Positions 11,901 to 36,180 of a stretch of 64,000 nucleotides of DNA are shown piece by piece. This DNA comes from Marsupella aquatica. Lineage: Eukaryota > Plantae > Marchantiophyta. The DNA lies in assembly GCA_973895155.1 (NCBI GenBank), contig OZ316893.1, forward strand, positions 5,966,171 through 6,030,170, given 5' to 3'. Made by a program: the position numbers and the translations under genes. The notes beneath the pieces are model-generated. The model was not told the DNA's origin and did no database searches. It was given only the letters and a program-made list of their open reading frames with translations. Within the stretch, counting starts at the first letter, position 1. Every line of letters starts with the position of its first letter.

Positions 11901-12145
11901 TGCCTTTTCGACCTATTCATGCAGATCATCCATGGCCGGGGTACCTTTTTGTGTGGGTGGGCCCGGATGGCATCCCAATTCTACCAAGGCATGTCGACTG
12001 CCTACTTGCAAATCGCCGTACCCTCATCAACCTTCAAATTCAGAAAGCCTCGGGACAGACTTGTCCAAGCATTGGGCCTCTAGATGACGTTTGCAAGTTC
12101 CCTCTCCTGAAATGTGATCCTGTGTCCAAGGTAGCCTTCGTGTAA
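8943..12145 (+). CDS. MULE accessory gene (multi-exon, probably partly decayed): C2H2-like zinc finger, GRP AT-hook-like motif, basic region and acidic repeat tract
   Basis: Exon ~8943-9229 encodes FLCKIMTDDSCQHFVKKQAFLDHMRSVH..PVGRPK. In-phase GT-AG joins lead to exons at ~9360-9666 and ~9925-10194. Acidic repeats DGATEDGAEDATSE at 10740-11200 contain frame slips. Last exons ~11429-11792 and 11891-12145. Confidence 0.6.
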
Positions 12146-13119
12146 GCGTTTCCTATGTAAAGTGAACTGCCTGTTGGCAACTCTCAATACAATGAATTTT
12201 CCATAAACACGATTTCGGACCGACCGAGAAGTGTGTCGGAGTTCTCGTTTAGCCCGATCCCATTTTTTTCTAAGGCAATGCAATGACCGATAAAATTGGC
12301 AAAAACTCTCCGAAACGCCACTTTCCTCCATTGCATCGCCGCGGGAATGCAGGGAGCGATACGTGCATTGGGTTTTACATTCCGTCAGTGAAAAAGTCCG
12401 AACTGCGAGTAACTTGGTCCGAACCGCGTAATCCAGGAACGACCACGCACTAACCCAGGTAAAAGGGGAACTTAACCATGGTTAAGGGGAAATTAACCAT
12501 GGTTTAGAGCATCTCCTATATAAAGAGGAGCGGGCTGCCCATAAAATGTTTGCTTTCGCCAGAGCAAATATCTCCTGACTGAGAGCGAATACCAAACTCC
12601 CATCAAGTCTTACATTCCTCCCAAGCGATTCGACTCTTTCTACCGAACACCCGATAAATTTATCGGAACAGCCATTCCTGTTCAAGTTCTCCATGTAAGA
12701 CTAACTAGTCATTTAGTGTAAAATGTCCAGATCCGAGCGGACTGCGATAAATTTATCGCATTTTGCATTCCTCTGTTGCAATCATTTGATCCAGTGTGTT
12801 TAGAGAGGTGTTGCCTTCATTCCGATAAATTTATCGGAGTCTCCATTCCTTTCATGGAAAGAGGAGTAATTGAGAATCCGATAAATTTATCGGAGTTGTC
12901 ATTTTTGTGAAAGATTGAATTCAGGGCTTAGGTGTTTGAGGAAGTCATATTTTCAATTCGAATGCGGAGTGCGATAAACTTATCGCATCCTCCTGTGAGA
13001 ATCATTTTCCTTTGTTTTGTTTGGAGACTCATCTTCATCTCTGATGTCGCAGTGTTGCCGGGTTTAGGAGGCACAACGGAAGGTCGATTGCACTCCGTGG
13101 ACAACAGGTATTGTGACAA

Positions 13120-13449
13120 ATGGCTGTCTTCCTTGAAAATCGTGTCAAACGTGCACGCCGGTTGTACAAGAGACTCGTGCAACTCAAAGTTCTCCCCATC
13201 GGTATAGGAGCATTGTGGATGGGTGGTACTGATCCTGGAGATAGGCAGAATCCTCTCCGCATTGAATTCTGCGGAATGAATGATGCAGGAGTTCCAATTC
13301 GTTCGAGGTTGATGTTAACGGCGTGTTTACATTCTTTGGAGTTTTCTTGTAACTATTGTTGTCGTCGTCTTGATAACAAGTACCACAAACAGGCTCACTT
13401 CTGTTGTAAGATTTGGAACGAAGACCCTTGGGTGAACCTTTCACGATGA
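13120..13449 (+). CDS. Small Cys/His-rich cargo ORF (109 aa), unknown function
   Basis: ATG-initiated intronless ORF ending CLHSLEFSCNYCCRRLDNKYHKQAHFCCKIW; first of a co-oriented run of ORFs. Confidence 0.4.
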   Translation: MAVFLENRVKRARRLYKRLVQLKVLPIGIGALWMGGTDPGDRQNPLRIEFCGMNDAGVPIRSRLMLTACLHSLEFSCNYCCRRLDNKYHKQAHFCCKIWNEDPWVNLSR

Positions 13450-13637
13450 GTGTTTCGACCTTTTCATTGAGGCGCATCTTGGAAGGACATATTTAAATAA
13501 ACAAGTCCTACCCTTGCGCAGCGAATATAATACGTCACGAGTCCTAATCGTTAAACTGTCGTGCAGGGTTGGTACTGTGTTTGGTTACACCTGGTGATTG
13601 AAGGTATTTTTATTGGTGGTTTTGGTAGCTCTGCTTC

Positions 13638-14186
13638 ATGGCTGCATCGGAGAATCTAATCGTTGCAAAGATGGGATCCGTTTTAGCCCACGAGCGTAGG
13701 AAATATATTCGAGGAAAAGTGCCCGGTGTGGAATGCGGAAGTTTGTTGAATGGACTTCCCGATGAACTCGTTGAATCTCACATTTGGCCCCTCCTAGCCT
13801 TGTCTTGCACACAAGATGAACACCTTGGCCTTGACCTAAAACTTCTACCAGAAGAACGACTGACTCGAATGAGAACAATCATTTGTCTTGGAGCCACCTC
13901 GAAGAAATGGAACCATCTTGTTGTTGGTACACGATTTTGGGCGCCATTGAAATATGCAGTCCGTGAGATCAATGACATAAACAAAATGCTCGCAAGCATT
14001 CCTAATGCCGTCCTTCTCTCAAACCTACATATTGCTAGGGTCTTCCGAGAGGAAACTCATTTCCTCCCTCCCATAGATATGCTTGGGTGCTTCTCGTATG
14101 ACCGATTAGATGCGTTTCTTAGAGTTTGGGTGAATCTTGGAGAAAGCGGGAAGCGGACAATTCTTGCATGGCATGGACGAGTCTGA
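13638..14186 (+). CDS. F-box-like cargo protein (182 aa)
   Basis: LLNGLPDELVESHIWPLL resembles the F-box N-terminal helix motif (LPxElxxxIxxxL), followed by CLGATSKKWNHLV (the VCKxWxxL-like F-box end). Confidence 0.55.
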   Translation: MAASENLIVAKMGSVLAHERRKYIRGKVPGVECGSLLNGLPDELVESHIWPLLALSCTQDEHLGLDLKLLPEERLTRMRTIICLGATSKKWNHLVVGTRFWAPLKYAVREINDINKMLASIPNAVLLSNLHIARVFREETHFLPPIDMLGCFSYDRLDAFLRVWVNLGESGKRTILAWHGRV

Positions 14187-14478
14187 GTGGATGAGGCATT
14201 GCAGCGAACATCCGATAAATTTATCGCACTCCTCATTCCTCTAGTCGATTTTGGGTGCTTGTAAAGAAACACTTTGAATATAATTGACTCTGCCTCCCCT
14301 GACTTCGGGTTGTGTGGTCCAGAGTGTATTTTTTTGCGCCTCTTCGGACGATTAGCTGACAAGTGCATTGGCTTCACAGCCCGTTATACAAGGTACTGTA
14401 AAGTTGGATGAAACTTGTAGAATTGTAATTAGTATGTTCTCCAAAATTTATTCCTGATTTCTATTCGGTGATCAGGCC

Positions 14479-15196
14479 ATGCTCGAGCGACGCATTTTTG
14501 TACCCTTCCCGGATCCTCCAGAATGGGGGAATGGAGCCATGCTGGACCAGCTAAGGAGGCTGGATGAGTCACTAATTTTAAAGATATGCAGGCTGGTAGT
14601 AAAACCATTTTACCATAACGCATTTCACTTCTACGTAGATCAGGTAGGGGAAGAAATTTATATTCGGTGGGATAGATATGTTGGATTTTCTAGAAGAGTT
14701 ATCCTACTCTTTCTGAAAACCGGTGCAGTAAGACGTTTTATACTCCACTGCTGTCATGTTGTGAAGGGCAATCCTGCTTATGAGCCAAAATTCTATGCCG
14801 ACAACAGACATAGAGCATTCGATGAGATTCAGGATGTGATTGACGAGCTGGACAATCCTCTTGCCACCGAGTTTTTTATTGACACTGGTGGGAAACTATA
14901 TTCATACAAGATTCGTCAACTCCCCCCCCAGCCGGTCTGTGGGCTCTTTAACTTGATCTATGTAAGTTGCCTGTGGATGAATGTCCTTGCCAATATATGG
15001 TGAGATCTGTCCATGCTGCACAAATGCTTGTTGTGACATTCCGTCACGCCGGTATTCAGTAGCAGTAGTGAATCCTGAGACTGGTGAAGTTGATTTCCAT
15101 TGGCTGTGGGCTTATGATCATCGCGTCACTCATATTCCCCAATGGCCCAAGAAGCGGATCGAACGCTTCGCTCTGGCGAGGTTCAACTATGATTAG
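14479..15196 (+). CDS. Cargo ORF(s), probably one frameshifted gene with a Cys-rich C-terminus
   Basis: 174-aa ORF (14479-15003) overlaps a 71-aa ORF (14981-15196, EICPCCTNACCD). A C8 run near 14922 is a possible slip site. Confidence 0.4.
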
Positions 15197-15234
15197 GGTT
15201 TAGGTTTAGGGGTTAAGGTTTTGGATTTAGGGTT
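15193..15234 (+). promoter_or_regulatory. Cluster of telomere-like / telo-box motifs upstream of the MTase gene
   Basis: TTAGGGTTTAGGTTTAGGGGTTAAGG..TTTAGGGTT about 200 bp upstream of the ATG at 15417. Confidence 0.45.
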
Positions 15235-18200
15235 CCGTAGCTGATTCTTCGACCTGTACACTCGGCCGTCAATTTAAAGAAGGCTCACTTTTGCGATAAT
15301 TTTATCGGTCTCTTTGTCCTTGTGTGATGAGATGTCGTGTCCACATGTGCTGCGAGATTGGCGGCGATAATTTTATCGCTCTTTGCATTGGAATTTGTTT
15401 ATTTGCAGACTTTTCCATGGCTGCTAGTGGAAAGAGTGGATCTGCTGAGGCAGAAAGTCTCATGACAAGCCTCACCAATGCAATTTGGACAAGTGAAGAC
15501 ATTTGTGAAGAGATCAAGTGTATCAAGAAGTCATGGTACTTCCGTGACGCCAGATTACAGTCCACGGGTTTCGAAGACTGTGTTACCCCAATCCTTTGGG
15601 TCCAGTTGCAAAAATCGGCGAAGGTTAATGTTTTGTATGGCCCTGTCATTGCTGTTGCCGTCGTCGAGTTCATGGTTGGCCACGGGGAGGGAAAAGTGTT
15701 GACAGAGGGCCTTAGTTTCTTGACAATGTATGGGCGCAAGGGTTTCATATCTCTCATTGTTACTCTCGATAACTTTGATGAGAAATCGATGGACAGTTAT
15801 CCAGAAGATCCCCTTGTTGCCGATGTTCGGGCAGCAAGAGAGATGAATGTTATGGGTTCGGCTTGGATCGGCCAGTATGTGCAAGATTGTGATGCCATCA
15901 TGCTTCCAAGGGTGAACGCAGAGTACAAGAGACTTGTGGGTGAAGAGTTCAAACCTGTCCGCAAAATTGTTTTCAAGAAACCAGGTTCAAGTGGAAGCGG
16001 TGGTTCTAATGCCGATAAAATATCGGGGTGGAAAGAACCATTGCAATCCTCTACACATATTGACGTGGACGAACCTACAACTTCTGGTCGGGTTTCGGGA
16101 AGTGGAAAAGGGAAAGGGAGAGGTAGCGGCAGGGGAGATGCCGCGGGAACCTCTGACGGTGGGAAGAAGAGCCAAGAAACTGGCGGTAGTGGGAGAGGCC
16201 GGGGCAACCATCGAGGACCATCTGTTAAACCAAGCGAAAGTAAAGGATCCGAGGGATCCGGGCCATCTGGTTCTGGACTTAGCACAAAGAGGAAGAGGAC
16301 TGGCTGGACTGAGACGGTGGCTGCAGAAGTAGATAGAGCTCCGTCAATTCCATCAGTTCCAGTCGCAGTTCCTACGGCGCCATTGGTAAGTACTACGTCG
16401 TTGTACTGTTTAACAAACACGAAATCCGATAAAAATCTCGTTGTTTATTTCCTGAATTGCGGATTGTGGAGTTATGTTGAACAAATGCGAACTCCGATAA
16501 AAATCTCGCAGTTTCTTTCCTTAATTGAATTTGTAACGCTTTTGTAGGCTGATCAGGAGGAGGAGACGGCTCTTTCGATGTATGAGACGGACGCGATCAA
16601 GGCAGAGCTCAGTCTTCTGATGCAACGAAGGGTGCAAAGGACAACTGTGCTTCTACATGTCGACAATCTCATATTTGATGAGGAGGGGGATTTGACAACT
16701 TTGATTAGACCAGTGGATAGATTGCATGTGGAAAATATCAAGATACTTCTCATGAAAAACCCCACCAACTTCAGTGCCCCGTTCGTGCTGTGTGTGGATC
16801 CAAAGGATTGTCCCACAACCGCAGATTGGGACATCCTGAAGTCAAGGGTATGGAAGTATAGAATTATTGGAGGGAATCATGGTGCTCGGGCAAAGTCCGA
16901 GTTGTTTAAAATGTACGGGAAGCAAATATATGGTGAGCTGGAAGCTTGGGTTTACGCTGGGCTTACGAGATCCGAGGTCCGAAAGTTAACTATGACCAGG
17001 AGTATCGGAAGAACATGACTAAAATTGACCAAGTTCGCGCTTGTCACAATATTTTCCTTGAAATGGGTGTGGGCTCGACTAAAGATGTCCGCGAAGCATG
17101 TTGTCAAGAATGCATGATGGAGTACACGCCAGGAGTTCGTGACTCCATGGCCAAACATGATCCGGCTTTCCAAATTGCTTTCCGAACAGGTGAAATTTGG
17201 GATCTTCAGAAGCAGATTTTCCAGATGTGGGAGAAAGGTGTTGTCTTAGGACAACCCAAAAAAATTGTGGCAACGACGAACGCAAAGGGAAAGGTGAAAC
17301 CTTTGACGGTAAGGGAGATTAAAATGAATAAACTTGCTGGTGACCTCAACTTAAATTCATTTCGAGGTCTCCAAGGACTGTCAAATAAGGAGCATGTCAA
17401 GCGTCTCTTGAATAGGGTTATCGGGAAGGTGATCACTTTGGATCAAATGCACAAGGAAGGTGAGAAGTTGAAAAAGCTTGCCAAGGTGAAGAAACTATTT
17501 TTGCAGATATCTGGTCAGCCAGATTGGGCAACATGCAGAGAAATGTTTCCCAACGAAACAGATGTCTCGGTCCTTGGCATATGGGCGGAGAAATTGAGTG
17601 ACGCGGTAAGCATTCCTCTCACAGCATGCTCTATCGCGAGATTTTTATCGGCTTTAGCATTCCTTTGTTGGTTTCTAAGCGATTCCATTTATTGGCTAGC
17701 GTGCTCCATCGCGAGATTTTTATCGGCCTTAGCATTCATCTCACGCTATTCTAACTATAGATGTGTCTGACATTCTTACAGCTGAAGATTAATTCAAAAA
17801 GGAAAAGCAAAGTGGTTCCGGCTGTCACTTATAATTCTGCGGGGGAGGTTATTGTTCCCTCAGTTGAAATCCCTTATGTGTTTAAGAATTTTGTGCTTGC
17901 TGCAATCGATAAGTACAATCGGCTGAGGTCCTTAGGCGAGGGCACAACAGAAGCGTTTGAACAAACATGGAAAAATGCAGACGGGGATTCTTTTCCCTAC
18001 TATCTCCATGTTGGTGATGTTCGAATTTTGGATTCTTTTGTTCAGCCAAGGGCTTACACCCTTGCGGTTGCGGATATTCCGTATGGTTTTAATGCTCCTG
18101 GTTCGGAGTTTGATGAAGTGGCCTTCACAGAAAAGGACATTTTAGACATGTTGACAAGTTTCTCAAAGATGACGACCGCTAAGCAGTGGAGGTTTGTTGT

Positions 18201-18804
18201 GATCCATTCACTACAACAAACGCATATAGTGCACTGGAGAGTGTATGCAACTGTGGGGTCGAGGCTGGAATCTGGGAGAAGACTAACATTCATGAGCGTC
18301 CCGCTGGAGCTCGATTGGCGTGGGGTTTTGAGAACTGGTCGATAGGTTTCTATAGCGAGGAAGGCATTCGGAACATGAACATGTACAATTTCCAACCGGA
18401 TGAGTCTCGCGTCACACTAGAAGAAAACATGGCCCTTTATGACCAACCGCCCAATGACGGAAATGCATAAATGACCTAAATTCTCAATGACACAAAATGA
18501 ATGACCGGAGAATGACTGTCCAAATTGACCAATAGACTGAAATGACAAAATGATTGTTTTTGCGTCATTTTGTAAAATGTCTGTAATGACTAATATGACC
18601 AAAATGACACAATTTTCTTAAAATGGTCAATTTAGACATATGTCCTAAATGACACAACCAATCACCACAATGATAAATCAGTGTTTAGCACCATTGTAGT
18701 CACTTTGGACAATGATTAAAATGACCGAAAACCTATTTGGGTCATTTTGGACAACAATAATAAATGACAAAAAACCTGTTTGTCATTTTAATCGATGGTG
18801 CTAA

Positions 18805-19225
18805 ATGACTAAATCTATGGTCAATCAAAATATCAAGATATATCAATGTTTACAACAATATACAGTCATTATAGACTTGTCTCATAAATGACTAAAGCTA
18901 ATGTCAATCAAAAACTCTTGATATATCAGTGTTTACAACAACATACAGTCATTATGGACTTGTCTCATATATATGACTAAATCTAAGGTCAATCTAAAAA
19001 TTAGGATATATCAGTGTTTATAACAACATAGAGTCATTATGGACTTGTCTTATATATGACTAAATCTAAGGTCAATCTAAGAATTAGAATATATCAGTGT
19101 TTACAACAACATACAGTCATTATGGACGTGTTTCATAAATGACTACTGTCTTGTAGAGTCTATCTAAAAATCAAGATATATCAATGTTGATGACAATATA
19201 TTGTCATTACAAACTTGAGTCATAA
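18805..19225. repeat. ~83-bp tandem repeat, ~5 copies (CACTA subterminal)
   Basis: Unit ATGACTAAATCTAAGGTCAATC...GATATATCAGTGTTTACAACAACATACAGTCATTATGGACTTGTCTCAT recurs at ~83-bp spacing. Confidence 0.85.
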
Positions 19226-19599
19226 ACCTTGGGCCCTCAGTCTTAACTAATACGTGGAGGACGTGTGAATGCTCAAAAGATAGTTTTTATTCATTTTGAA
19301 CTAATAGTTATAATTATTACCGGTAATAAGGGGACTTTTAATGGTAACATGGAAATAACAAGGGGTTAAACATGAAAATGGCCCGATCGTAGGGGGTCCA
19401 CTTCTTTTACATGGAGTGAGGGCCCAGGGGTCATAAATGACTACTTATAGATACATTAAGCTATGTTGGATATATCAATGATTAAAATATTGTATAGTCA
19501 TTGCAGACATAGGTCATAATTGTAGAGTCATTGAAGAATGCCAATGACTACATTAAGGGCAATATTTGCTGTCATATTAGATGTCATTTTGACCAAATG

Positions 19600-22500
19600 A
19601 CTGCATATGTCGTCATTCAAGACATCCCTCATGGTGTCATTATGGAAAAGCAAAAATGACCATTTTTGGTCTACGAGCTTAAGGTGGGCCCGAGTGTGCC
19701 ATGGGCCCTACATAGAGGTGAAAAACTCTCCACTAGGTGCGGGACACTACACTCATCATTGTCCAACCACTAGTTGCAGCGTCAACACTTTGGACACATG
19801 TTTTTGTGTTTACTTAAGGCATGATGCACCTTTGGGGAAATCACTCCCAAGTCGTACGACTTTGGAGTGATTTGCTAGAAGTGTCACCATGGATGCATAT
19901 CATCACATCCAAACGCAAACAAAAGTGGTATTTTTGTTCTCCAAGAGAGAGTGCAACACCAATAGAATGGGTGTGGTTGTTGTGCTTCCCTATATGGTGT
20001 GTGTGCGGGTTTAGGGTAGAGGAATATTCTAACCTTGCAAGGATCTAAAGCAGGCTCTTTGTGGAGGTACTAGGGCCTTTATTGGGTCATTTGTGAACAA
20101 TGGTCTGTCATAAATGCCAATGACTAAAAGTAGGGTCATTAAAATTGTCATATGGGAAGTCATATAAGTCAAGTGACTGGACTTGTGGTCATTTGTGTGG
20201 TCCCTCATGCAGTCATTAAACAGAAGCACAAATGACCAGTGTGAGGCTAGGGGCTGAAGGTGGGCCCGAGTGTGCCATGGGCCCTACATAGAGGTGAGAA
20301 ACTCTCCACTAGGTGCGGGACACTACACTCATCATTGTCCAACCACTAGTTACGGCATAAACACTTTGGACACATGTTTTTCTGTTTACTTAAGGCATGA
20401 TGCACCTTTGGGGAAATCACTCCCAAGTCATATGACTTTGGAGTGATTTGCCAAAAGTGGTATTTTTGTTCTCCAAGAGGGAGTGTAGCACCAATGGAAT
20501 GGGCGTGGTTGTTGTGCTTCCCTATATGGTGTGTGTGCGGGTTTAGGGTAGAGGAATATTCTAACCTTGCAAGGGATCTAAAGTGGGCTCTTTGTGGAGG
20601 TACTAGGGCCTTTATTGGGTCATTTGTGAACAATGTCCCGTCATAAATGCCAATGACTAAAAGTAGGGTCATTAAAACTGTCATATGGGAAGTCATATAA
20701 GTCAAGTGACTGGACTTGTGGTCATTTGTGTGGTTCCTCATGCAGTCATTAAAGAGAAGCACAAATGACCAGTTTGGGGCTAGGGACTTAAGGTGGGCCC
20801 GAGTGTGCCATGGGCCCTACATAGAGGTGAGAAACTCTCCACTAGGTGCGGGACACTACACTCATCATTGTCCAACCACTAGTGGCGGCATAAACACTTT
20901 GGACACATGTTTTTGCGTTTACTTAAGGCATGATGCACCTTTGGGGAAATCACTCCCAAGTCTCCATGGATGCATGCATCCCATCGGTTCCAAAGGTAAA
21001 TGAAGCCATTTTTTTTGTCTCTCCAAGAAGTCGCGCAACACCAATGGAAGGTTGTCATACGTTTTAGGAACGTGTCATGTTTGTGCCAGTGTTTGGATGG
21101 GGAATACTCCATTTTGCATACGAATAGTGTCGGGGCATTGTGAGTAGGTGTTGTAATCTTCATTGGGTCATTTTGGAGGAATAGAGTGTCATTAATGCCA
21201 AAGACTACAATAAGGGTCATTTTGGCAGTCATTTTTGAGGTCATTTTTTAATGTGCCAAATGACGGCATATGGGGTCATTATAGAGGTCCCTCATGGTGT
21301 CATTATGGACCAACAGAAATGACCATTTTTGGTCTAGGAGCTTAAGGTGGGCCCGGGTGTGCCATAGGCCCTACATAGAGGTGACAACCCCTCCACTAGG
21401 TGCGGGACACTATACTCATCATTGTCCATCCACTAGTTGCGCCATAAACACTCTAGACACATGTTTTTGTCTTTACTTAAGGTATGATGCACCTTAGGGG
21501 AAATCACTCTCAAGTCATACGACGTTGGAGTGATTTGACAAAAATATGACCATGGATGCATACCATCGTATCTAGCAAATGGAGCCATTTTTTGTCTCTC
21601 CAATAAGTAGCGGGACTTTGATTTAATTGTGTCATGTTTGTGTTGGTGTTTGGATGGGGAATATTCTATTTTTCAAATGAAGAGTAACGGGGCTGGTTAA
21701 AGGTAGTACTGTAATCTTTATTGGGTCATTTCTGAAAAAATTGTGTCATAGGTTAATGCCAATGACTACAAGTAGGGTCATTAAAATAGTCATATGGTAA
21801 GTCATATAAGTCAAATGACTGGACTTCTTGTCATTTGAGGGGTCCTTCTTGCAGTCATGAAGTAGAAGCACGAATGACCAGTTTGGGGCTAGGGGCTGGA
21901 GGTGGGCCCTAGAGTGCCATGTGGCCCCACATAGAGCTGACAACCCCTCCACTACGTGCGGGACGCTATACTCATCATTGTCCAACCACTAGTTGTGCCA
22001 TGAACATTTTGGAGTTATCTTTTTGCGTTTACTTAAGGCATGATGCACCTTTGGGGAAATGACTCCCAAGTCATACGACTTTGGAGTGATTTGCCAAAAG
22101 TGTCACCATGGATGCATATTACCATATCCAAAGGAAAATGGAGCCTTTTTTTGTCTCTCCAAGAAGTAGCACAACACCAATGGAAGGCTGGACATCATCC
22201 TTTGATCTAATTGTACATGTCATGGTTGTGCCGGTGTTTCAATGGGGAATATTCTATTTTGCAAATGAATAGTGGCGGGACACTCAAGGAGGTAGTGTAA
22301 TCTTTATTGGGTCATTTATGAGAAAAATTGTGTCATAAATGCCAACAACTACAATTAGGGTCATTAAAATGGTCATATGGGATGTCATATAAGTCAAATG
22401 ACTGGACTTGTGGTCATTTGAGGCGTCCCTAATGCTGTCATTTAGGAAAAGCAAAAATGACCAGTTTGGGGCTAGTGGCTAGAGGGACGCCCTAGAGTGC

Positions 22501-23800
22501 CATATGGCCCCACATAGGGCTTGCAACCCGTCCACTAGGTGCTGGACACTCTACTTACTATTCTCCAACCACTACTTGCACCATAATTAATGTTGAGCCA
22601 TGTTTTTGCGTTTAGCTAAGGCATGATGCAGCTTTGGGGAAATGACTCCCAAGTCATACAACTTTGGAGTGATTTGCCAAAAGCGTCATCATGGATGAAT
22701 ATCTTATATTCCAAAGGCAAATGGAGCCATTTGTTTTGTTTGTCCAAGAGTTAATGCAACACCAATGGAATGGGCATGGTTGTGGTGCTTCCATCTATGG
22801 TGCATGTGCATGCAGGTTCAAGGTAGAAGAATATTCTAATTTTGCAAGAAATCTAGGGCGGGCTCTTTTTGGAGGTACTAGGGCACAAGTTGGTCATTTA
22901 TAAAAAATGGTGTCATAATTGCCAATGACTACAAGTAAGGTCATTAAAACAGTCATCTAGGATGTCATATAAGTCAAATGACTGGACTTGTGGTCATTTG
23001 AGGCATCCTTTGTGCAGTCATTATCAAGAAGCACAAATGACCAGTTTGGGGCTAGGGGCTGGAGGTGGGCCCTTGAGTGCCATGTGGCCCCACATAGAGC
23101 TGACAACCCCTCCACTAGGTGTGGGACACTATACTCATTATTGTCCAACTACTAGTTGCGTATTGAACACCTTGGAACCATGTTTAAATGCGTTTACTTA
23201 AGGGATGATGGAACTTTGGAGAAATCACTCCCAAGTCATACGACTTTGGAGTGATTTGCCAAAAGTTGCACCATGGAAGCATACCATACTATCCAAAGGC
23301 AAACAAAACATATTTTGTCTCTCCAAGAGGAAGTGCAACACCGATGGAATGGGCGTGGTCATGGTGCTTCCCTCTATGGTGTGTGTGGATTCAAGGTAGA
23401 GGAATATTCCACTTTTTTCAAGGAATCTAGAGAGAGCTCTCTTTGGAGGTACTAGGGCCTTCATTGGATCATTTGTGAACAATTGTGAACAATGGCGTGT
23501 CATAAATGCCTATGATTACAAATAGGATCATTGAAATGGTCATATGAGATGTCATATAAGTCAAATGACTAGATTTGTTGTCATTTGAGGGGGTCCCTTG
23601 TGTAGTCATTTAGGAGAAGCACAAATGACCAGTTTGGGGCTATGGGCTGGAGGTCGGCCCTACATAGAGCTGGCAACCTGTCCACCGGGTGCATGACACT
23701 CTACATACTATTCTCCATGCACTACCTGCAACATAAACACCTTGGAATATGGGGGTTCTCTTTTGGAGGTACTTGTGCTTCATTGGGCCATTGATGAACA
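19600..23800. repeat. ~530-585-bp tandem repeat, ~8 diverged copies inside the CACTA element
   Basis: Anchor CCACTAGGTGCGGGACACTACACTCATCATTGTCCAACCACTAG recurs near 19730, 20307, 20839, 21394, 21949, 22533, 23113 and 23683. Confidence 0.9.
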
Positions 23801-26800
23801 ATGCTAGGTCATAAATGCCAATGACCTTATATACTTGGTGTCATTGTGGCTATGAGGAGAGAGGTTAAAATGACCAAATTGGGCCAGGGCTAGAGGTCCT
23901 ATACTTGACAGTCGCCCAAACTATTATTTTACCCAACAAATAGTCTCCCTTATGAGGGTTTGCGTCCTCCATTCTACAAAATCTCCCTTATGAGGGGTTG
24001 CGTCTTCCATTCTACACTGTGATTTGTGGCCGTGAACAATTTTCTAAAAATAATGCAACATTGGTGGGATACCATGTTTTAGACTTTGTCATGTAGATCA
24101 TTTAATTAATGAGCAGGGTAATAATAAATCCTTTGTGAGGGAAAATCGTAGGTCTTCTAGCAATTTGGAAGTGTTTACATTGACTATGAAAATGGCAAAC
24201 AATCACACAACTTGACTTACAAATCTTAAAAGGGATGGAATTGCTGTTTACACCTCCTTTGCACCCCATTTACAGCTGGTTTATAGGGTCTATAAGTCAA
24301 GACTTCCTCTATTGTAAATATACTGGCTACTTCTCCTTTCTAACTTGACTTTGGAATTCAACTTTTGCTTTCACGGTCATCCAAATTGACTGGGGTGTCA
24401 GTCTACTAAAACCAACCCTTACACTACCTAGCTTTACACTGGTTACCGTCAGTCTACCGGTCCATAAGGAGTGATTATAGTGTAAAACGGCTTCTACTAC
24501 TTGCCTTTGTATTTTCAAAATCCCCACTCATGGGAAACGTCACGCGCGCTCGGATCTTGGGGTGCTGCCATACTTTCAAGCTCCCGAGCGTGCTCCCAAG
24601 CTGTGGAGACTGGACTTAATGCCCTATCACTCCGACATGTTCACTGCATCACAACAAATTTGCTCATTGTTCTGTCCTCTAGATGATTCCATGGCTTGAT
24701 CCGCATTCTTTAGAATGTTGCGAGATTTGTTTCAACTACTGATTCTTCCTCTACTCCATTCGACTACGCGCTTTCAATTTGACTTCTTTCCCATCTTTCC
24801 TGGCAGGCTCTTGCCAAGATAGGCCGCCGCTTCAATTTGTATCAATGTTCCCTGCTTCGTCATGCTCTCCGCAACCAGCCGTTCGTTGCAATGTCCAAAA
24901 TAGCTGCCTTTAATTTTTGCTCTGCCCTTACTTCGCAAATTTCCAATTTGATCTTGGGGCAGACAGACTGAGTTTATGTATGAATACATGAATCAGCAGC
25001 GGCGGTCTGAGAAGTTTCCGTGACGTTCAAAAAGTTGCGAGCCTCAATGGAAGGAGTGCCACTCAGGTAACACATTGTTCACTTATTGTGGCTGTGAGAA
25101 ATCTTCAAAGCTTTGCAGATGGTTCACGTAAGCTTTTCTACGCACAAGGGCCCTAGTCTTACTACTTGGTTAGTAGTTAGAAGTCAATTTTCCTCCTCGA
25201 CAAGCGTAGGACGAGTTTCTCTTGCCCAAGTGCCTGGGTAGTGCACTCGGTTTCAACAGGGGCTGCAGATTGATGAGAGATTGATATTGATTTAAGAGTT
25301 CACACAAATTGGGGGATCAAATGCTGATGATCTTGAAAGAGGTTTTGTGAGAGTTCTTAATAAATACGTCCCCATTCTAAATTTCTGTTATCTAATCTTC
25401 TGATCCTTCTATGCCACGCGTATGCAAGTCTTGAGCTTAACATTGTTGGTCGTGGGCTTAAGGAATAATTGTTTGGATAAGTACTTTAAAAGTTGTAGTA
25501 TTCCACTTGTGAGACCGTGCAGCCAGTCTTTTGCAATGAGATAAATTCAGAAAGGTCTTACGTATTGAGCTTTTTGACTTTGGCAGGATTGTTTTCTAAT
25601 AACCTTTGCTGAGTACAACAGCAACAGAAATGACACACTCCACGGTAGGTTTGATTCTATTTTAATCAATTGGCTGGCTGCAGCTGTGAGTATCTTGCTA
25701 TTGCACCCCAAGGTCACTAGTTTGCAATTGCATCGAGGTATCTCCGTCTGTTTTCTCCAGGCAGCTGCTGCCTTGGTTTTGACCTCACAGATTTCAGAGG
25801 AAACTGGGAACATGAACAAACTACAGTACAATACTTTGGCGTGGACTATTGAAGGGGAAGCTGCCTTCCAGGGTTTAAGGTTTCTTTCTGCCTCCCCAGC
25901 GTTCCATGACAATGGCAGAGCACGTTGCCAAGAGAAGAATGCCTTTGGGTACGTTGCTGAGTGCTCATCCATTAAGTGCGCACCTCCATTTCTCTGGATT
26001 GGGGAGAAAGGGAAGCTCTTAGTGCCTGAAGAGTATCTTACATTCCTCACAGTCTGCCAATAAAAAAATTATTTGTGAGGGCAAAACCAACATGGATGGC
26101 AGATGTTCAATTAATCAATCCAAACATACACAAGAAACTAGGAAACTTACCGGAGGCCACTAGAAGCTTGGGAACTGACTGTAGGCCACTAGAAAGAAAG
26201 AAAGTCACATTTTTGATTGGACGGTAGAGTCTCGAGAAGTGGAAATATTGCAGTATCCTGGGGCGCCAAAGATTTAAAACTACCAAGAAATAACATGGCA
26301 GATGCGTAAGAAATCAGAAGCAGCACTAGTCAAAATCAAGGACAAGTTACGCTTGTCTACGATAGAGTTGGAGAATAAAATAACAAGGAGTCTCCATTTG
26401 AGTCACTAGAGGCCCCTAAATAAAGCGAAAAGGTATCCCTAGAGGCACCTAGAAGACAAACCAAAAGGTTCTACCTTTGGGCATATATACCTGTTTAGAA
26501 GAAAAGTACGTGATTGTCTGGTCCTCACTATGCCGACGGGTTGTTTGAATTTGTGATGAATTTGTGATGGATATTTACTTCTGATCATTTACATCTCTGC
26601 CAACATCAACAGTCTTCAGTTTGACAACTCACTCGTTTGACCCAGATGAAACATTTTGAGAGAGTAAAGACGTAGATTAGCTCGCAGTCATTACCTTGCT
26701 ATTGAAGTGTAGGATCCTGAATATATAGAACAGGGTATCTGATTGTGCTTTCTCAAAGTGTCATTAAATGTGTAAAGTGTTTCTGCCAACATCAACAGTA

Positions 26801-29800
26801 TTCAGTTGCCTGGGCTTTTATACTGATCGGATATATATCATCAAGATTCCTCCATGTCGGAGAGAAACGCCTGTTTATACGACTCACGTATAATATTCAA
26901 CTCTTAACGCCCAAAAGAGGTTGGACTCATCTCTTTTTCAGCCTGGGACACTTTCTCGTCTCCCCATACTTCTTCCCCGACTTCTTCAAGTCCTGCTCAG
27001 TTCGTGAATGATCTTTCTTGCCGCCTGCACTTATCTGCATTTGCCTTGCTTTCAGACAAGTTACACTTTTATTGAAGGTCATCTCTCTTTATTGTATTGC
27101 TTTTCCATTTAAGACAGCATTGTCCCCACTACTGCTTGTCTCCCGGCTGAGCTTCTTTATTGCCTGTTATAATTTATATCAATTTTTTGCTCACCTGCAT
27201 GAACTTGTTGTTCTGGATTTATCGTCGAGCCTTCTGCCTAATAGGCTAGCTAGCTACACGGTCTGCCATATTTCTTGTCCACAAGTTCAGCTTTGAATAA
27301 ATGGCGTCAGAGCATCTCTACTGTAGTGATCTTCTCTTTTTCATAGGGAATCAAAAAATTCTCTATCTTCATTGGCTTTTTGAATGGCTGGCGATGAAAC
27401 TTCATTATTGACAAGTTCTCTTTCTCTCTACTTTCCCGTTTTCTTTATATAGCGGGCTCATTGTTTGACGTAAAGTTGTTGGCATTTTCAGCTTGAGTTA
27501 ATACTGAACCTTGCTCCTATGGATGTCATGTCCTACAACAGGTTATATTGATGGTGACATTGGTCAAGAGCTGGACTCACGCCTTTTAAGATAAATAGGA
27601 TTGAAGCACGTCAAGGCAATGAGGTAGTGCTTAAACTCTTTTAGCTAAGTGCTCTCACATATAGATTGCTTTATCTAAGCCTGGAAGAATACTGTAGATC
27701 TGAGCTGTGAGAAGACTCTACTATAGAGATTTGATTCAAACACGTTTGTGATTATTCAGTTCAAGAACAGTTGTGGAAGTTAATAATTACTGACTAAAAC
27801 CTTTCCCAGTTATATCTCAAGTTATATGAATGTGAAGTTTTGACAATTGCTAGGTCCCTTGTTTGCTTGACTATTTGTGTCCGCTAAGCTGACTTCAGGT
27901 TATGTTTAATATGGAGTCAAATAAGTTGCGGATATGGTACCTGGCAAGCCTTGTTACATTCTGACTGGAATCATTCTATATTTTTTTAGCAAAGCCAACG
28001 GAGGATCCCTTTGAGATCAAGAAGGTGCATAAGATGCTGGGAACTTTACCTGTTGGAAAGGTTGATACCCTCAGTGGAGGAAAAGTTGAATTGCATCCTC
28101 GATAAACATAAGGTGACTGCCCTCAGTATTGTTTTCAAAGAAATAGATTGATAGACTTGAAGTTCAGTCACTGTTATAAAAATACCAGACAATGTACTTT
28201 AATTATTTAGTATGGTATAATTAAGGAACTCTAGGATTTGGTTGATGAAATGGATCAGTTCTTAAAGATTGAAGGTTAGAGGACATTGAAAGTTTAGGGC
28301 CAGCTATAAGTGTCAGACTTAGGAGTCTTCTTGGTCGAGGTCAAGCTCTTCTCAACAATTAATCTGCTTGTATTTGGTGAATCTCTCTATATATATATAT
28401 CGATATAAGGGACAACTACTGCCTCTGACTTCTCCTCCTGTCTAATTTACACAGCCATAGTGATGTACTCTATATCATGCATTTGGAATTTGAGAAAAGT
28501 TCTGAGCTCTTCTTGTTTTCCTTTTGCAGAATGATGACATTGTATTATATGCAAGCTCAATTTGAGTCTGATGAGAGTTTGGGATGACTGGAAGTCTGCA
28601 ATGTACGTACAATTTACCAAGAACTGGATCCTTTTGGGCAGGTAGTGTTCATGATTAATTGCAAATGAAACAACAGGACCTCGAGCTTACCTTTTGAACA
28701 TTGCAAGGTTGCAATTGCCATTATGAGTTTGCAAGCCTAATGAATGACGGGTGCATTTCTAGCGAGTGAGCCAATTGGAATTGGAGAATTTCAACTCCTC
28801 TGTAAGTCTCTGATCGCACTCCCTTGTGTGGTATGTATGTCTTGGAATACCTAGATTACATGGTTTATGGGACTACAAATTCACAACCAGCTACGTAGTC
28901 TCAATGTGATGCATTTTTTGCTCTGATGCATATGACCTGTATTTTCCATTTGCTGATACAGGAGCGGGAAACTACAAGCTACCTGACATGAAAGGGACAA
29001 CCACACTGTGGAATTCCAGATTGCTTAAGAAGCAATAGTTGTAGATTTGAGGGATGCAGCTCCTGTACAAAGTATAATCATAACTTTTTTGATTCATTTG
29101 TTGATCACAAGCTTGATTGCTGGAGAATAGGATTAGATGCTCAACAGTATTCTAGTGTAGATCATTGATGAAATATTGTATGACACTCAAAATGACATTA
29201 TAAATAATGTGCATTATGATATCCAAAATGAGTCCATCATGTATGACATTCCAAATGAATTTATAAATGACGTGTGTTGTGACATCATTTTAATGACGCC
29301 TTCTCAAGTCATTTCCATCATTGGAAAATGACATCTTTTATGACTGTCCAAAATGACTAAATGAAATACGTCATTTTTTACAGATGAAAATGACTACTGA
29401 AATTCGTCATTTTGGACAGATCCAAAATGACAACTAAGTATATCCATGTGTCTATCACACAATGATCCACATGGTGGCTAATGATTTGTGAGAGCTTTCG
29501 TCATATTAGACATGTCTGAAATGACAAGAATTTATTGCCCCATGTTGATTATGAAAGATGCCACATGTCTATGGTTCATTTGTTCAAAATATGGGTCATT
29601 CTGGACATGTCTAAAATGACATATTATTTGTTTAGTGGTTGGACACGTGGCTTTTTTTAATTGGTGACGGTGACCGTCAATGGTGAACGGCACAAGACCG
29701 TTGATGACACTTTTTTACGTCATTTTGGACTGTTGGTCATTTTGGACCTTTGGTCATTTCTAGTAATTTTGGACAATAACCAATGACCATGGGATTTTTG

Positions 29801-30747
29801 CGTCATTTGTCCGATAGGACCATGACGCATTTGTCCAATGCAACGTGTCTGGAAAGACACAAACAAATGCGTCATTGGTTTGATGAAAAGACCATGTCAA
29901 TAGTCATTGTTACAGTCATAAATAACCCTGTTTTCTACTAGTGTCAATATCATCAAGGTTCCATGTGTAACCAAGAAGTCCGTTGATCCGTTGGGATTTG
30001 TTGTGAACCCATATCAGAAGCCTGTTGGTTTAGGGGCTTGGTTTGTTTCCCATTTCTCTGAGAAAGAGGATTGGGTTATTGATCTTTGTTGTGGAACCGG
30101 ATCGGCATTAGCTGCTACGCTCCTCAATTCTCGCCAGGGTTGTGCTGTTGATAAGAGTTCTGCGCAGATTGGTTTTGTAAAATCCCGGATCATGATTCTG
30201 GAGTCAAACTGGAATTTATATGAAGAATCCCAGATTGAAGGGCACGGCGTTGAAGGTCATGAGATTCAACCACCAATTGCAGGCCAATTGGGTGTACTCG
30301 GGACATCGACTTACATAGTTGAGGTCGTGAAGGAGACCGAAGAGGAACAAGAAGAAACTGAGGAAGAGCCTCCCAGAACACCAAATGAGGATGATCTCAA
30401 CGACATGTTATTAGATTAGTTGCGTGTGCTCGTTAGGATAATGTCAATCACCAATGAAGTTGTCGATAAATTTATCGACTTCTGTATTCCATGAGGAAGA
30501 ACCTTTGTCACATTTATTAATGCGATAAATTTATCAGACTTTGCATATATCGGACTGTCGCGGTGTTCCTGCTGGGGGAATGGAGTTGTCGATAATCTTA
30601 TCGGACAACATTGTATTCTCTAACTGGTTTGTCATTGCAATTATTAAAAAAAAAAGATATCATTATAGCTTCGGAGTACATAGTCCTAGAACGATAACCA
30701 CTGTACATATTCATGGGAACGATAACCATTATAACTTAAACCTGAAA

Positions 30748-33700
30748 CTAGCTTCGACTATCAACGACTACAGTCTCCATTGCATTTTGAATGATTCGTC
30801 TTGTTTGTATAGGGAGAGTACTATTTGCCAATAACGCAAAGTTATACGCATAAACGGCAGTTTCTGATAGGGACAAATCATCCTCCAGTACTTTGCTAGA
30901 CGAAGCCTCTTTCTCCGGATAATATCTGCCTTCAATTGTAGACTCTTCCTCCGAATCCATTGCATACCAAGTGATTTTAATCCGCTCCGGGATGTCGTTA
31001 ATTCTTGTGAGAATCTCAGTCACTTTTGCCATCCAGAATGGTCTTCCCTTGGGATCCTGATGGGCTGCTACACATATCATTGCAAATTTAGTATTCACCT
31101 CTAGATCCTTGAAGTCTCCAATTTCCGTGACTTTTCTTCGACTTCCGGAATACATGACTGTCCTCACACCCGCTACTTTATCAACCAAGCTAGGTTCCAT
31201 TGCTGCTTCCGTAGGATTACTCGGAAGTTTTCTCTGTACGTTTACCTTGGGCCAACTCCAATCAAAACTCCATTGTGCAGGTTTCAGGTGGTGCTGAATC
31301 ACTTCTTTTTGTTTGTCAAAAAAACGACCCCACCATAGACGATCTGCGTCGTCAAAGTAATTGAATCCATCTTCAATTGCTTTTCGATATTTTTGAAGAG
31401 TTGACAAATAACTTTGAGCCGGCCGCTCATCTTGTTCCTCAGCATCATTCTCTTGCTCTTCATTGTCTCCTGTCGCTCCCGTGGCCGACTTCAATGCCAT
31501 TTGTGGTGCGACCCACATTCCAGATGATGGAATGTACCGAACAAAATCCACCGTCTCCCCCCAATCGATTGTCGTTGAAAGATGTTTGGCATGGAATACG
31601 GACCGAGCACTTCCATCTTCGAGTACTCTAGTAATCCAAAATTGTTTTTGAGCACTTATGCCGTGGAGAGTACGTAGAACCTGACCATCCATATCCTTGT
31701 CATTTGCTTGATCCTTGTCTGACACAAATTTCTTGAAATCGGCAACCTCGTCGACAAAAAATATCTTTGCCGTAGGATTGTAGGATTCCTCTATGATTGC
31801 TGAAAGAGTGTCCAACCAGAAAGCTTTCCGCTTGTTCAATTTTGAAGAAAACTTGCTAAACATTTTATCAATTTGATCATGGGTGTGCCCCACCAATAGG
31901 AAACCAACCTTTATTTTCTGGAAAACACCTATCTCCACCAACATATTCAAATATGCCATAAGATATTTATTCTTGTTTTCCCGAGCTGTGTTATCAAGCT
32001 GGAGGTAAAGCACTGGAGGGAGCAGACCTTCCCAGGTATTCAGAATATGCTGGATAACGTGGATGGTTAGGTTGCTATCATTGTGAATATTTGGATAGTT
32101 CAAAAAAACATTTGAACTTAATTGTTTGTTGAAGATCAAACAACCCACTACGTGTACGGGGATGAAATACTTTTCATCCATATTCTTCGGATACCGAATG
32201 AAATGAGGTAACTCTGTCTTCTTTTGATCCATTCCATCAATACAGATGCCCAAATATTTCTCCGGACTCTTGTAACATTTGCTCCGGTGCTTTGCTAACT
32301 TCTCCCTCTCGACTGCTTGTGCCTTCCGATGCTTGTTTAGCAATGTTGAGAATTTTCCTACAACAATAAAAAAATTTAGGACAAAACATGATAACCGCAA
32401 TGTTGAACCCTGACAGCGATAAATTTATCGGGTTCAGTATTCAAACACGAGACCGTAATGATAAACCCTGACAACGATAAATTTATCGGGTTCAGTATTC
32501 AAACACAAGACCGTAATGAAAAACTGTGACAGCGATAAATTTATCAGGTTCAGTATTCAAACTGTTCAAACGATATATTCACTCACATGGCCAAAGAAGA
32601 AGCACATGAATACTCAACCCGATAAAATTATCGGGAGTAACACACAGGTTTAGAAATTTACTCTTTTCTGCTTTGAGTGTTGCCTTGTCACGGAGTGCTT
32701 TGAATTCAGTACACGGGGCGCAGGTGGAGAAATGGCTCCTTTTGGGGATGCGCACGCGAGGAAACTCCTTGTTCCAAATGCGAACAAACCACGAATATGT
32801 CATGCCTTGTTCTTGGCGCATTAGAGTTTCGGACTGGAAGGCATCAAAAACTTATGTTTTTGTCCAATTGTCAGGTAAATGAAAGATATCCTTGTTGGGG
32901 AGACTCTCGACATTTGTGGAAAAAAATCATCCAGCCATTGGACGAGACCAAGATGTGCGGGTGATTTTTCTCGACAAACTGTACCAATCTGTATCCGAGA
33001 AAACATGTTCTGCGAGATTTTTTGGAGACGATTATTTCCCAGTGAAAATAATTTCTTAAAACCACTTTGACAAAAGGATCTACCGCTAACTGAGTAACCA
33101 CTTGCACCAGCATGCCCACCCTTCACACATCCTCTTAGAAGGACGTTCTTCTCTGGGTAGGATAGCCCATAGTAATAAGTGCGTTGTTTCGTCACGGCTA
33201 GCAGACCCAAATTCCGCAGACAGTAATTATCACAACACGAATACTTATGAATTTCTCTCATTTTGTTTCTATTCAATTTGTCATTTATCACATTGTCTTT
33301 CCTAGTAATTCGGTCCCTATCTTTTTTACTAGGCTCATTTGACTTCTCTACAACCTGAAATCCGTTCATAACATTGGCATTTTCGGGTCCTTCAGGTGCC
33401 TCGCGAATAGATGCATCACTCTCTGCTGAGCTACCATCCTCTATAGATCTCCTTGACGCATTTAGAGGGGCACTGAATAGACGACTATAGCTATTCTCTT
33501 CGACAACTCCTTCTAAACATTCAGACACAACTTGTGCTATTATATTGGATTCTCTATCTCCTTCCTCATCTTCGTCCTCCGATGCACTCGACTCATCTGA
33601 AAACACAATTGGACTCCGTGGCTCTCTATACATAACCCGAATGCCACTAAGACCTCTCCTCGATACTTGGAGCCTGGAACCAATGACAGTCCGCCCTTGA

Positions 33701-34308
33701 GAACTTGGATATTCTGGATTCGCACGTGCAGTCCCAACGACTCTGCGAGCTGCTGGAAAATTGAGCACTTGTTCACCACGATTCCCACGGACCATTCGAG
33801 AAAGGGCCGAGTCTGGACTTCGCAGTCCGATTCCCTCGCTTGCTCGCACATCCAGTCCAGGCAATGCAAAGACCGATCGCCGTATCGGTCTTTGTATTTC
33901 TGTGTCCCGATCCTCACCCGGAGACTGAAAGATCCGTCGTTGAACTTGTGTTGAATGTGGCGACTTGAATGCCGACTGTGATACGCGTATCGGTCGCCGG
34001 ATACCCTCTCCATAACCCGGGATGGATGGCCTGAAGCGACGTCTCGGACCTAAACCTTGGATTGAAAGTTTCTCATTTCTTGGCGATGGAACGCTCAAGA
34101 GACGACGCTTCTCAGGTTTACTAGGCGACACATAGTAAGCACTGGGCTCAAGATCAGAACTTGCATCAGAATCTGAGTCAAAGATTTCGGGCACTATTTG
34201 CTGTGAGAGAGGTAGAGCTTTAAGTATGCGACTTGGCAAACAGCGAGCGACAAGATTAGGAGAGGATTCAACTGAACTGGAAGGTGAATCTGTGTCTGAT
34301 TGAGACAT
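30748..34308 (-). pseudogene. Sola-like DDD transposase (exons 34308-32662 and 32357-30748) with a BAH/SH3-fold-like C-terminal tail
   Basis: Motifs CCDNYC..FCQSGFKKLF..NNRL, FSTCAPC, ICIDGMDQ, LYLQLDNTARENKN and FLLVGHTHDQIDKMFS. Phase-1 GT-AG intron at 32358-32661. Frameshift in a homopolymer run near 32920 and an in-frame TAA near 32853. Confidence 0.8.
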
Positions 34309-34450
34309 GGCTATCCGAGACACTATGGGGCTTTGCATTCCTCCCACAATCAGGGAAAACGAAAGGCTCAACGGACAGAATGTTGCTCCAAGAACACAAC
34401 TCCCAAAACTCTACTCTCGATAATGACGCCAAAAACTTATCGGCGGTGGC

Positions 34451-34501
34451 CCTTTTATAGTGTCTGTTGAGGGGTTGGCCCACGTGTCCACTTTTGATTG
34501 G
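34451..34501 (-). promoter_or_regulatory. Putative transposase promoter: CCAAT box, G-box/ABRE (GACACGTGG) and TATA box (CTATAAAAGG)
   Basis: On the - strand the order is CCAAT (~34500), GACACGTGG (~34485), CTATAAAAG (34452-34460), about 150 bp upstream of the ATG at 34308. Confidence 0.5.
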
Positions 34502-35588
34502 CTGTCACCCTAAACGATAAAATAGCAGAAAAGGGTATATTTCTTGGATTTCCAATTTCATTCTCACACGTGCATCGTGGCAAAATTATATAGTTTTGAA
34601 ATTGAAGCGATAAATTTATCTGATGTTGGTATTGCAAAAGTGGTTCCTTCATATGGAAGTTGCAATTTTGAAATTGAAGCGATAAATTTATCTGATGTTG
34701 GTATTGTGAAGAGTTTTCTTCATATGGATAGGAATTTTGAAATTTAACTGATGAACCGAAGGATCTTAGTATTGTCGACTAGTATTTTTGTCGCCCGTAG
34801 TTTTCGTGATAATTTTATCGGACTGCGCATTGCTGTTGAAAGAATGGCATGTTGACTATGGTCACTTGCGGAGGTAACTGGTCAATTGCGGAGGTAACTG
34901 CAAGGTAAATTTGACGAACCGTGCAGTAATTCTTATCGACTGTGATGTAAAATATTTTTGGTAAATATCCAAAAACTGAGAAACCTGAGATTGGGTCGGA
35001 GTTTTCGTGGCTCAAATCCGGAGTCCGATACAGTTATCGCACTTGGCTCGAAACATGGATATGGATTTATAGATAAGACCTTTCATATATCTTCGGAGAG
35101 CGTGAATATGAGGTCGAGGAGAAAGTTTTTCGGATCTAATTGTTCCTTGATAATATGAATGTTTGTTAGCATGAATTTCATTGGTTTTGATCATTATTAA
35201 ATTTGTTGTTTCAATCCGAACTCCGATACGAATTACATTATTTCCCCAAAAACGCGTTTTTGATGAAAAAAACTGCCGATTTCGCGAGATTCGGCGGAAA
35301 ATAAAAATACACTTCTCGTTTAGAGGAAATAGTTCTCGTTCGGTCCAAAATCGTGTTCATATAATGGTGTAATGGTTGATTGTCCCCTCCCACAGTTTGA
35401 CACAATGGTGTTTCACCCTTTTTATGCTATGGGTTATGAATGGTAGCCTAAATTTTTTGTTCGTCGACGCACTTGTCATGCCAAGACCAATAATAAAGTC
35501 AACCTATCTTGAACAATAGCTATATCCTGAGTTATGTTTTGACACGCACTGATATGCGACCGACATCTCCATCCGCGTGCAAGTAATG

Positions 35589-36045: not shown

Positions 36046-36180
36046 GAGTTTTGTGTACTTTTGACCGAGTTATGGTTCATGTTTTGCATTCACTCGCATA
36101 TTATGTGTATCACAAGACTCATTGTCAATGTTTTGCCGCACACATATACAAGGGTTACAACAAAGGGGTATTTTCTGTTA

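Follow-up and report, generated by a model that had tools for sequence, protein, structure and literature searches.

A two-part palindromic site in a Sola1-type transposon of the liverwort Marsupella aquatica, a candidate target of the element's own ParB-methylase

Genes and palindromes of the Sola1-type element

The window analyzed here, a 64,000-nucleotide stretch of Marsupella aquatica contig OZ316893.1 (GenBank assembly GCA_973895155.1, positions 5,966,171 to 6,030,170 of the forward strand), harbors a Sola1-type DNA transposon that contains a minus-strand transposase gene, a plus-strand ParB-methylase gene and two cargo open reading frames (ORFs). The transposon measures 11.6 kb without the CACTA element nested in it, and is bounded by the 4-bp target-site duplication (TSD) CATA at 12202-12205 and 35358-35361. 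A 14-bp palindrome recurs throughout its non-coding DNA. The sequence-only reading of the window had called this palindrome parS-like, had held that it marks this element only, and had taken the copies to be binding sites of the ParB-methylase encoded there; the palindrome sequence itself is presumably unlike the parS consensus. The elements and genes concerned are as follows.

12206..35357: Sola1-type DNA transposon with 25-bp terminal inverted repeats (TIRs; 23/25 match) starting AACAC; TSD CATA
13639..14186, plus strand: cargo ORF; weak F-box-like match (E 0.041, below the cut-off)
14476..15196, plus strand: second cargo gene (ORF2); frameshift near 14985; four homologues at 47-64% identity
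15417..30419, plus strand: ParB-methylase gene; exons 15417-16385, 16548-17605, 17782-18414 and 29944-30419
30748..34311, minus strand: DUF7869 (Sola-type) transposase gene (E 5.7e-49)
18415..29943: nested CACTA element splitting the methylase gene; 3-bp TSD TCA; no sites
8407..40536: enclosing Mutator-like element (MULE) with 275-bp TIRs (8407-8681 and 40262-40536) and MULE and SWIM domains; no sites

Scanning of the whole window revealed eight exact copies of the 14-mer and 19 matches with up to two mismatches against 0.13 expected, a number reached in 0/100 shuffles. All 19 were located within 12652-35039 and outside the nested CACTA, and none was found in the CACTA, the enclosing MULE or the flanks, in agreement with the earlier claim of confinement. 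Allowing three mismatches added six matches. Four of these, at 16427, 16495, 17637 and 17712, belong to the two methylase introns and represent a single asymmetric variant present on opposite strands; the other two, at 8193 and 40945, are outside the element and are both non-palindromic. The core set hence comprises 23 sites, eight exact and 15 variant, close to the eight exact and about 14 variant copies counted before, and about 27 sites with the four further ones described below. The perfect palindrome extends to 16-18 bp in five of the eight exact copies, the two quoted previously (at 12743 and 30462) included. The range given previously ended at 34820; one site, at 35026, lies beyond it and still inside the element, which ends at 35357.

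Coding sequence occupies about 66% of the element, and all 23 core sites were found outside it (p about 6e-5 with the sites taken as nine clusters). The DNA 5' of the first cargo gene, the intergenic spaces, the methylase upstream region, all three introns (as the sequence-only reading had noted), the tail-to-tail gap and the transposase upstream region each hold some of them; several copies fall within short tandem duplications. Through the element, sites recur at most 1.8 kb apart. The 25-bp TIRs carry no palindrome and the closest clear sites are about 450 and 320 bp inward of the element ends, so that the earlier description of the sites as subterminal was overstated.

The site was observed to have a second part. 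Outward from the palindromes, the motif YATT begins at base 8 on 18 of 48 arms, representing 17 of the 24 sites examined (0.54 arms expected), and at every other offset it occurs on no more than three arms. The 7-base spacer varies, whereas the palindrome and the YATT flank are kept; the fuller form of the flank, YATTC, corresponds to GAATR on the opposite strand. A two-part search of the window gave 27 matches at 23 sites, all 27 in the element's own DNA, against 1.04 expected, and added four decayed or older-type sites (12357, 13444, 33874 and 33979). Two of these four overlap the open frame at the 5' end of the transposase gene; hence the sites as a whole are mostly, not exclusively, non-coding. 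Three single two-part matches in viral contigs, with neither gene nearby, were judged to be due to chance. The sites and clusters are listed below.

12357..12370: decayed site of the two-part pattern, YATT flank on both sides
12652..12985: cluster of five palindromes (12652, 12745, 12823, 12879, 12972), 5/5 with the YATT flank, downstream of a TATA-like box at 12517
13444..13457: weak, decayed site of the two-part pattern with YATT flank
14213..14226: exact palindrome separating the two cargo ORFs
15294..15378: two variant palindromes directly upstream of the ParB-methylase start codon (15417)
16386..16547, plus strand: methylase intron 1 with two asymmetric sites (16427, 16495)
17606..17781, plus strand: methylase intron 2 with two asymmetric sites (17637, 17712), both with the YATT flank
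30464..30603: three palindromes in the tail-to-tail gap of methylase and transposase
32358..32661, minus strand: transposase intron with four palindromes
33874..33992: two sites with different centres (33874, 33979) within the 5' open frame of the transposase gene
34608..35039: four variant palindromes upstream of the transposase gene (34608, 34680, 34807, 35026)

Palindromes of related elements

A metagenome scan identified 113 relatives, of which the best 80 loci were kept. The tree, constructed by a quick method from 74 rows (the window and 73 of the 80 loci, seven too-short loci being left out), yielded close, far and distant clades. The ParB-methylase was visible beside the transposase in 16 of these 80 loci, and the 14-mer of the window was present, at up to one mismatch, in none of them. 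The families were found to possess palindromes of their own, mostly of the CGAT...ATCG type, which track the transposase tree. The sequence-only reading had anticipated that related families would differ in their palindromes; such differing palindromes were found, and in the same places.

Among the close relatives, L001, L002, L004 and L032 carry 14-mers in which the outer CGA[TG]...[AC]TCG is kept and the centres differ, positioned in the same transposase intron or 3' gap; the form in L001, L004 and L032 is CGA[TG]ACCNGTATCG. The tail-to-tail gap contains the own version of each of these four loci, and family-specific palindromes occupy the transposase intron in L001, L004 and L023. L003 has no intact palindrome in that intron and no intact site elsewhere. 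The YATT pattern, defined on the window, was tested independently on five close loci, of which all but one possess sites, and the motif was found at offset +8 on 12 of 24 arms and at 10 of 12 sites, with 0.29 expected. In L023 (667-3424), which belongs to a sister clade, the repeated unit is the CG-free TCATGA-NN-TCATGA, present in seven copies, one or more of them in the same transposase intron.

The far clade (57 loci) differs in layout, its two genes being arranged head to head. Its sites are 15-mers, CGATRC-N3-GYATCG, with subfamily-specific centres and often in tandem arrays, and 147 of 153 occupy the interval that separates the divergent genes, 1.3-2.6 kb upstream from the catalytic exon. 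A site was present in 20 of the 23 loci that cover this divergent-promoter zone, and in 12 of the 14 with a visible ParB-methylase; the three exceptions among the 23 are L044, with an inverted methylase gene, L057, without the zone, and L064, which is divergent. In L057 the promoter zone and the array are missing and both TIRs are present. In L011 (98-7691), a complete element, the two genes take up the whole length and a single site lies at the centre. In the fragmentary distant clade, CGAT-N7-ATCG sites were found in L006 and L072, and a ParB remnant in L073. The 17 most distant loci were considered as a methylase-free control, which failed owing to the remnant in L073 and to an array in L072 that lies in a second element of the clade. 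This second element starts at 9998, and its array (9998-11240), of CCGATTC-N3-GAATCGG units, is decaying, with many CpG-to-TpG changes.

The ParB-methylase and the transposase

The ParB-methylase consists of a ParB-like domain, a helical KorB/ParB-like domain and a beta-class amino-methylase (DIPY ... DLCCGTG). Relatives of the ParB domain were found in Chara, Ginkgo and Riccia, and none was detected in viral contigs or prokaryote genomes by word-based searches of low reach. A profile search that included the middle domain retrieved 574 homologues at E 0.001, where an earlier non-profile search for longer homologues with that domain had found nothing. Two consecutive Riccia sorocarpa locus numbers, R1sor_010795 (DUF7869, P0066) and R1sor_010796 (ParB-methylase, P0146), suggest that the same gene pair exists in a sequenced liverwort.

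Among PDB sequences, the ParB profile had no significant match; an atlas comparison pointed towards fungal DUF3723 clusters. The ParB and middle domains of the relative L033, modeled from 67 sequences (predicted local distance difference test score, pLDDT, 86.7), matched Noc and ParB in Foldseek at E 1.6e-5 to 5e-4, PadC with Z 9.6 (root-mean-square deviation, rmsd, 2.8; 96 aligned residues) and pNOB8 ParB with Z 8.1 (rmsd 4.5; 210 aligned); the ParB/Srx N-terminal fold is present in this model. The window's own helical domain was folded alone (pLDDT 88.9). With a second aligner its only whole-domain rows were KorB (Z 6.1 and 5.7) and Spo0J (Z 4.4), the top KorB row having rmsd 3.7 over 99 aligned residues. 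In the N-terminal domain, the Box I arginine, the Box II glycine and histidine and the Box III asparagine are conserved in the family. Box II itself has the form GG[NS]H, and the next residue, at the position of the ParB arginine, is S, G or T in 47 of 56 rows, in our reading of the register; the window protein has GGNHG. No member of the ParA family was found among the 13 element ORFs scanned.

In the methylase domain, motif IV (DIPY) precedes motif I (DLCCGTG), and both are intact. The best match of the methylase profile was the adenine enzyme M.MboIIA (E 3e-10), followed by a DpnA-like enzyme and M.RsrI; homologues scored above the Pfam cut-off for PF01555, and the C-terminal piece of the window protein alone gave E 0.0015, below that cut-off. 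MboII, RsrI and CcrM recognise GAAGA, GAATTC and GANTC, respectively. By analogy with these targets, GAATR, the flank read on the opposite strand, is a plausible target of the methylase, and nothing more than plausible.

The transposase was assigned by DUF7869, which we take to be a marker of Sola transposases. Its named homologues are from ferns and the liverwort Riccia (31-56% identity), the closest homologues showing 60-73%, and none was found in viral contigs by a word-based search of low reach. The DGMDQ, QLDN and GHTHD motifs are kept and the catalytic exon is an open frame; the upstream exon is interrupted by a frameshift near 32922 and by a stop codon at 32854. The transposase intron and methylase intron 2 agree with the homologues, and methylase intron 1 was placed from splice signals and phase alone. 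The methylase gene, apart from being split by the CACTA, has frameshifts near 16987 and 18232. With two frameshifts in the methylase and a frameshift and a stop in the transposase, this copy of the element is dead. Since both genes are broken, its sites could serve a function only if the protein came from an intact copy, and are otherwise a relic.

The ends of the element possess a repeat of a different kind, as given below; the ends of the relatives read GTGTT.

12224..12248 (twice) and 35313-35339 (twice): short terminal repeat (A/C)CGAGAA, candidate transposase sites

Four of the six copies of (A/C)CGAGAA in the element are within 45 bp of its ends, and the repeat is a better candidate than the palindromes for the sites of the transposase.

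Some further features of the window were noted. ORF2 encodes a CxCC motif and gave a weak Spo11/TopoVI-A winged-helix lead (score 0.88, below the reliable range). The interior of the nested CACTA (19450-23830) is composed of about eight tandem units of 530-590 bp. Outside the MULE, a UDP-glycosyltransferase gene is duplicated in inverted orientation (42341-45894 and 56319-59297, 81-92% identical), and a gene of the rubber elongation factor (REF) family is located at 6869-7348 (E 2e-20).

Candidate readers of the sites and comparison with known systems

It is probable, in our estimate by a modest measure, that the palindromes are binding sites of the element's own ParB-methylase, which would act locally, likely methylating adenines, and keep the genes of the element switched on. 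A dimer of the protein would read the palindrome through its KorB/ParB-like helical domain, and the fused methylase would read or methylate the flank, probably writing N6-methyladenine (6mA) at or near it. The effect may be anti-silencing, as with VANC, promoters and introns being kept open. Action without a sliding CTP clamp fits the window sites, as these recur at most 1.8 kb apart. The binding part of the earlier proposal is thus retained, on the element-specific sites, the ParB-type fold and the positions, and its CTP-dependent load-and-spread part is not. The observed/expected ratio of CpG, computed with the sites masked as a proxy for cytosine methylation, was 0.80 and 0.88 in the element, 0.57-0.58 in the MULE, 0.58-0.63 in the flanks and 0.40 in the nested CACTA, which was inserted later than the Sola1 element. 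The high CpG of the window element fits a long escape from 5-methylcytosine; as a value from one family it could also reflect recent arrival. The promoter zones of the far clade (0.73-0.81) are likewise richer in CpG than their flanks.

Several observations weigh against this interpretation. Taken alone, the helical domain of the window protein matched nothing in Foldseek at the E 0.001 level, the best value being 0.97, and unrelated small bundles score as high as KorB does (Z 6.1); for these reasons the middle domain is likely, not proven, to be a ParB-type DNA-binding domain. The methylase profile also matches an N4-cytosine enzyme (E 5e-4), DIPY being compatible with both 6mA and N4-methylcytosine (4mC). 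CpG shows no gradient with distance from a site in the window (0.88, 0.81, 0.71, 0.85), and the transposase exon of the far clade is poorer in CpG than its flanks (0.58 vs 0.69, 17 loci). The YATT flank is absent from L023 and from the far clade, which has only a looser, different flank; the far-clade loci, many of them near-identical, are not independent and perhaps amount to ten families; and the covered divergent promoter of L068 contains no CGAT...ATCG site. Moreover, the transposase and methylase genes always travel together in the sampled loci, so that family-specific motifs fit either protein and only position separates them. In the available text of one study, AtMu1 transposase can activate its own family, with own-family peaks at the TIRs (10.64898/2026.08.24.746577).

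The last two points bear on the alternative already raised in the sequence-only reading, namely, that the transposase binds the sites. They would then be internal sites from which the element's promoters are switched on, or helpers in the pairing of the ends. The motif tracks the transposase tree as well as it does the methylase, some window sites are 150-450 bp from each end, and, as far as the accessible part of the AtMu1 study goes, a transposase alone is able to hypomethylate and activate its family (10.64898/2026.08.24.746577). Position argues against end sites, however: in the far clade strict sites were found at none of the 29 covered right ends and none of the five covered left ends, decay-tolerant matches at only two of the 29 right ends, and L011 has only its central site. 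The different short repeat gathers at both ends of the window element, and it was at the TIRs that AtMu1 had its own-family peaks, so we consider binding by the transposase unlikely. A clamp closed by CTP, entering at the palindromes and then travelling for kilobases while it methylates, in the manner of VirB or KorB, would account for the alignment of the N-terminal and helical domains with ParB, Noc and KorB, for the conserved Box residues, for the single central array per 7.6-kb element in the far clade and for the flat CpG along the window element; VirB is, in the portion of the source at hand, a ParB-type anti-silencer that loads and slides (PMC10770331). Such a clamp is nevertheless doubtful because the nucleotide-binding arginine of GxxR is replaced by S, G or T across the family in the register adopted above; mutation of this Box II arginine abolished nucleotide binding in ParB-fold proteins, per the available text (PMC12704722). 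The spacing of the window sites, repeated at most 1.8 kb apart, also speaks against sliding, and the load-and-spread cassette of the sequence-only reading is accordingly judged improbable.

The ParB-methylase could also bind the sites as a KorB-like repressor or dosage control of its own promoters; alternatively, a transcription factor of the host, or a different cargo protein, could recognise them. In favor of this, the arrays of the far clade coincide exactly with the divergent promoter, KorB, a repressor, tops the fold matches of the helical domain, and ORF2 has its winged-helix lead. A host factor, however, leaves the change of palindrome from family to family unexplained, none of the 80 loci, the complete L011 included, gave a match to ORF2, and escape from silencing accounts better than repression does for the high CpG of the window element; we regard this group of explanations as having little probability. 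Finally, the sites could have arisen neutrally, through tandem duplication and the formation of hairpins, and several copies do fall within short tandem duplications. Against this, copies are scattered among gaps and introns unrelated to one another, the spacer varies between a palindrome and a flank that are kept, and position is conserved across families while the sequence changes. The conserved two-part pattern largely refutes this neutral explanation, which is very improbable.

Beyond local action of the ParB-methylase, a wider and distinctly speculative proposition may be put forward, which we hold to be possible and rather doubtful. Land-plant Sola1 elements may each carry a private epigenetic writer, in which a ParB-derived reader sits on the family palindrome and the fused methylase marks GAATR, 7 bases away in promoters and introns, with 6mA, excluding host silencing, reader and site co-evolving family by family. 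If so, these families would constitute a natural set of orthogonal, site-directed adenine methylases.

The nearest known system is Sola1-1_Ec32 of Ectocarpus, also a Sola1 element with a gene for a ParB-like protein with an N4C/N6A methylase on the strand opposite to the transposase; its termini are AACCG and its 4-bp TSD tends to end in A, comparable to AACAC and CATA here, and its authors propose that the methylase binds and modifies its own transposon (PMC12477816). It is from a brown alga and has a 282-bp TIR against 25 bp, and the available text mentions no palindromes and defines no site (PMC12477816). In the Plavaka PAG2/PAG3 cassette of the red alga Bostrychia, a ParB-like accessory gene is adjoined by tandem inverted-repeat arrays proposed as its binding sites; unlike the present case, these elements are of EnSpm type, ParB is fused to a 2-oxoglutarate (2OG) oxygenase, the methylase is a separate gene, and the available text describes no family-by-family series of sites or intron sites (10.1101/2025.02.11.637652). 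The ParB-helix-turn-helix (HTH) Dam proteins reported from chlorophytes and chytrids have, as described in the part available, a methylase of a different group (Iyer 2016) and were set apart from this system. The available portions of the papers on Marchantia 4mC and on rotifer N4CMT mention no ParB fusion. No paper defining or testing such palindromes was found in the literature within reach, which left out most subscription papers and the bioRxiv supplements. Both the gene pair and the self-modification idea have already been published for algae; the site grammar and the positional test are new here. The algal ParB-methylase accessory genes have no defined target; the window provides exact candidate sites and a predicted methylated position, and the family-specific variants are built-in specificity controls. 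With these in hand, self-modification can be put to a direct test in land plants. Should it hold, plant genomes would possess a methylation system directed by sequence to adenine or N4-cytosine, and transposons a second route to anti-silencing, independent of the first.

The layout of the sites resembles that of VANDAL elements and VANC, in which, according to the available text, family-specific short motifs, tandemly amplified, occupy introns, intergenic and terminal non-coding DNA beside an accessory gene (PMC5735166). In the window, too, the 23 core sites are all non-coding, two of the four further ones lying in an open frame, and tandem arrays occur in relatives. The VANC motifs differ in being 9-base non-palindromes in Mutator-like elements, and the action of VANC has been demonstrated (PMC5735166), whereas the candidate reader proposed here is a bacterial-type ParB fused to a methylase. 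With ParB/parS, KorB, Noc and VirB/virS, the window system shares a ParB-type N-terminal fold followed by a helical domain and palindromes of similar length, as far as the available parts of these reports show (PMC10770331, PMC12704722); VirB is an anti-silencer (PMC10770331), as is proposed for the window protein. As in the ParB/parS systems, a palindromic cis site of 14-18 bp is repeated near the gene. The window system differs from them in the missing Box II arginine, in the lack of a detectable ParA, in the C-terminal fusion to a methylase and in its residence in a eukaryotic transposon. By its definition, the parS/ParB clamp family does not include this system, which combines a VANC-like layout with KorB/VirB-like parts.

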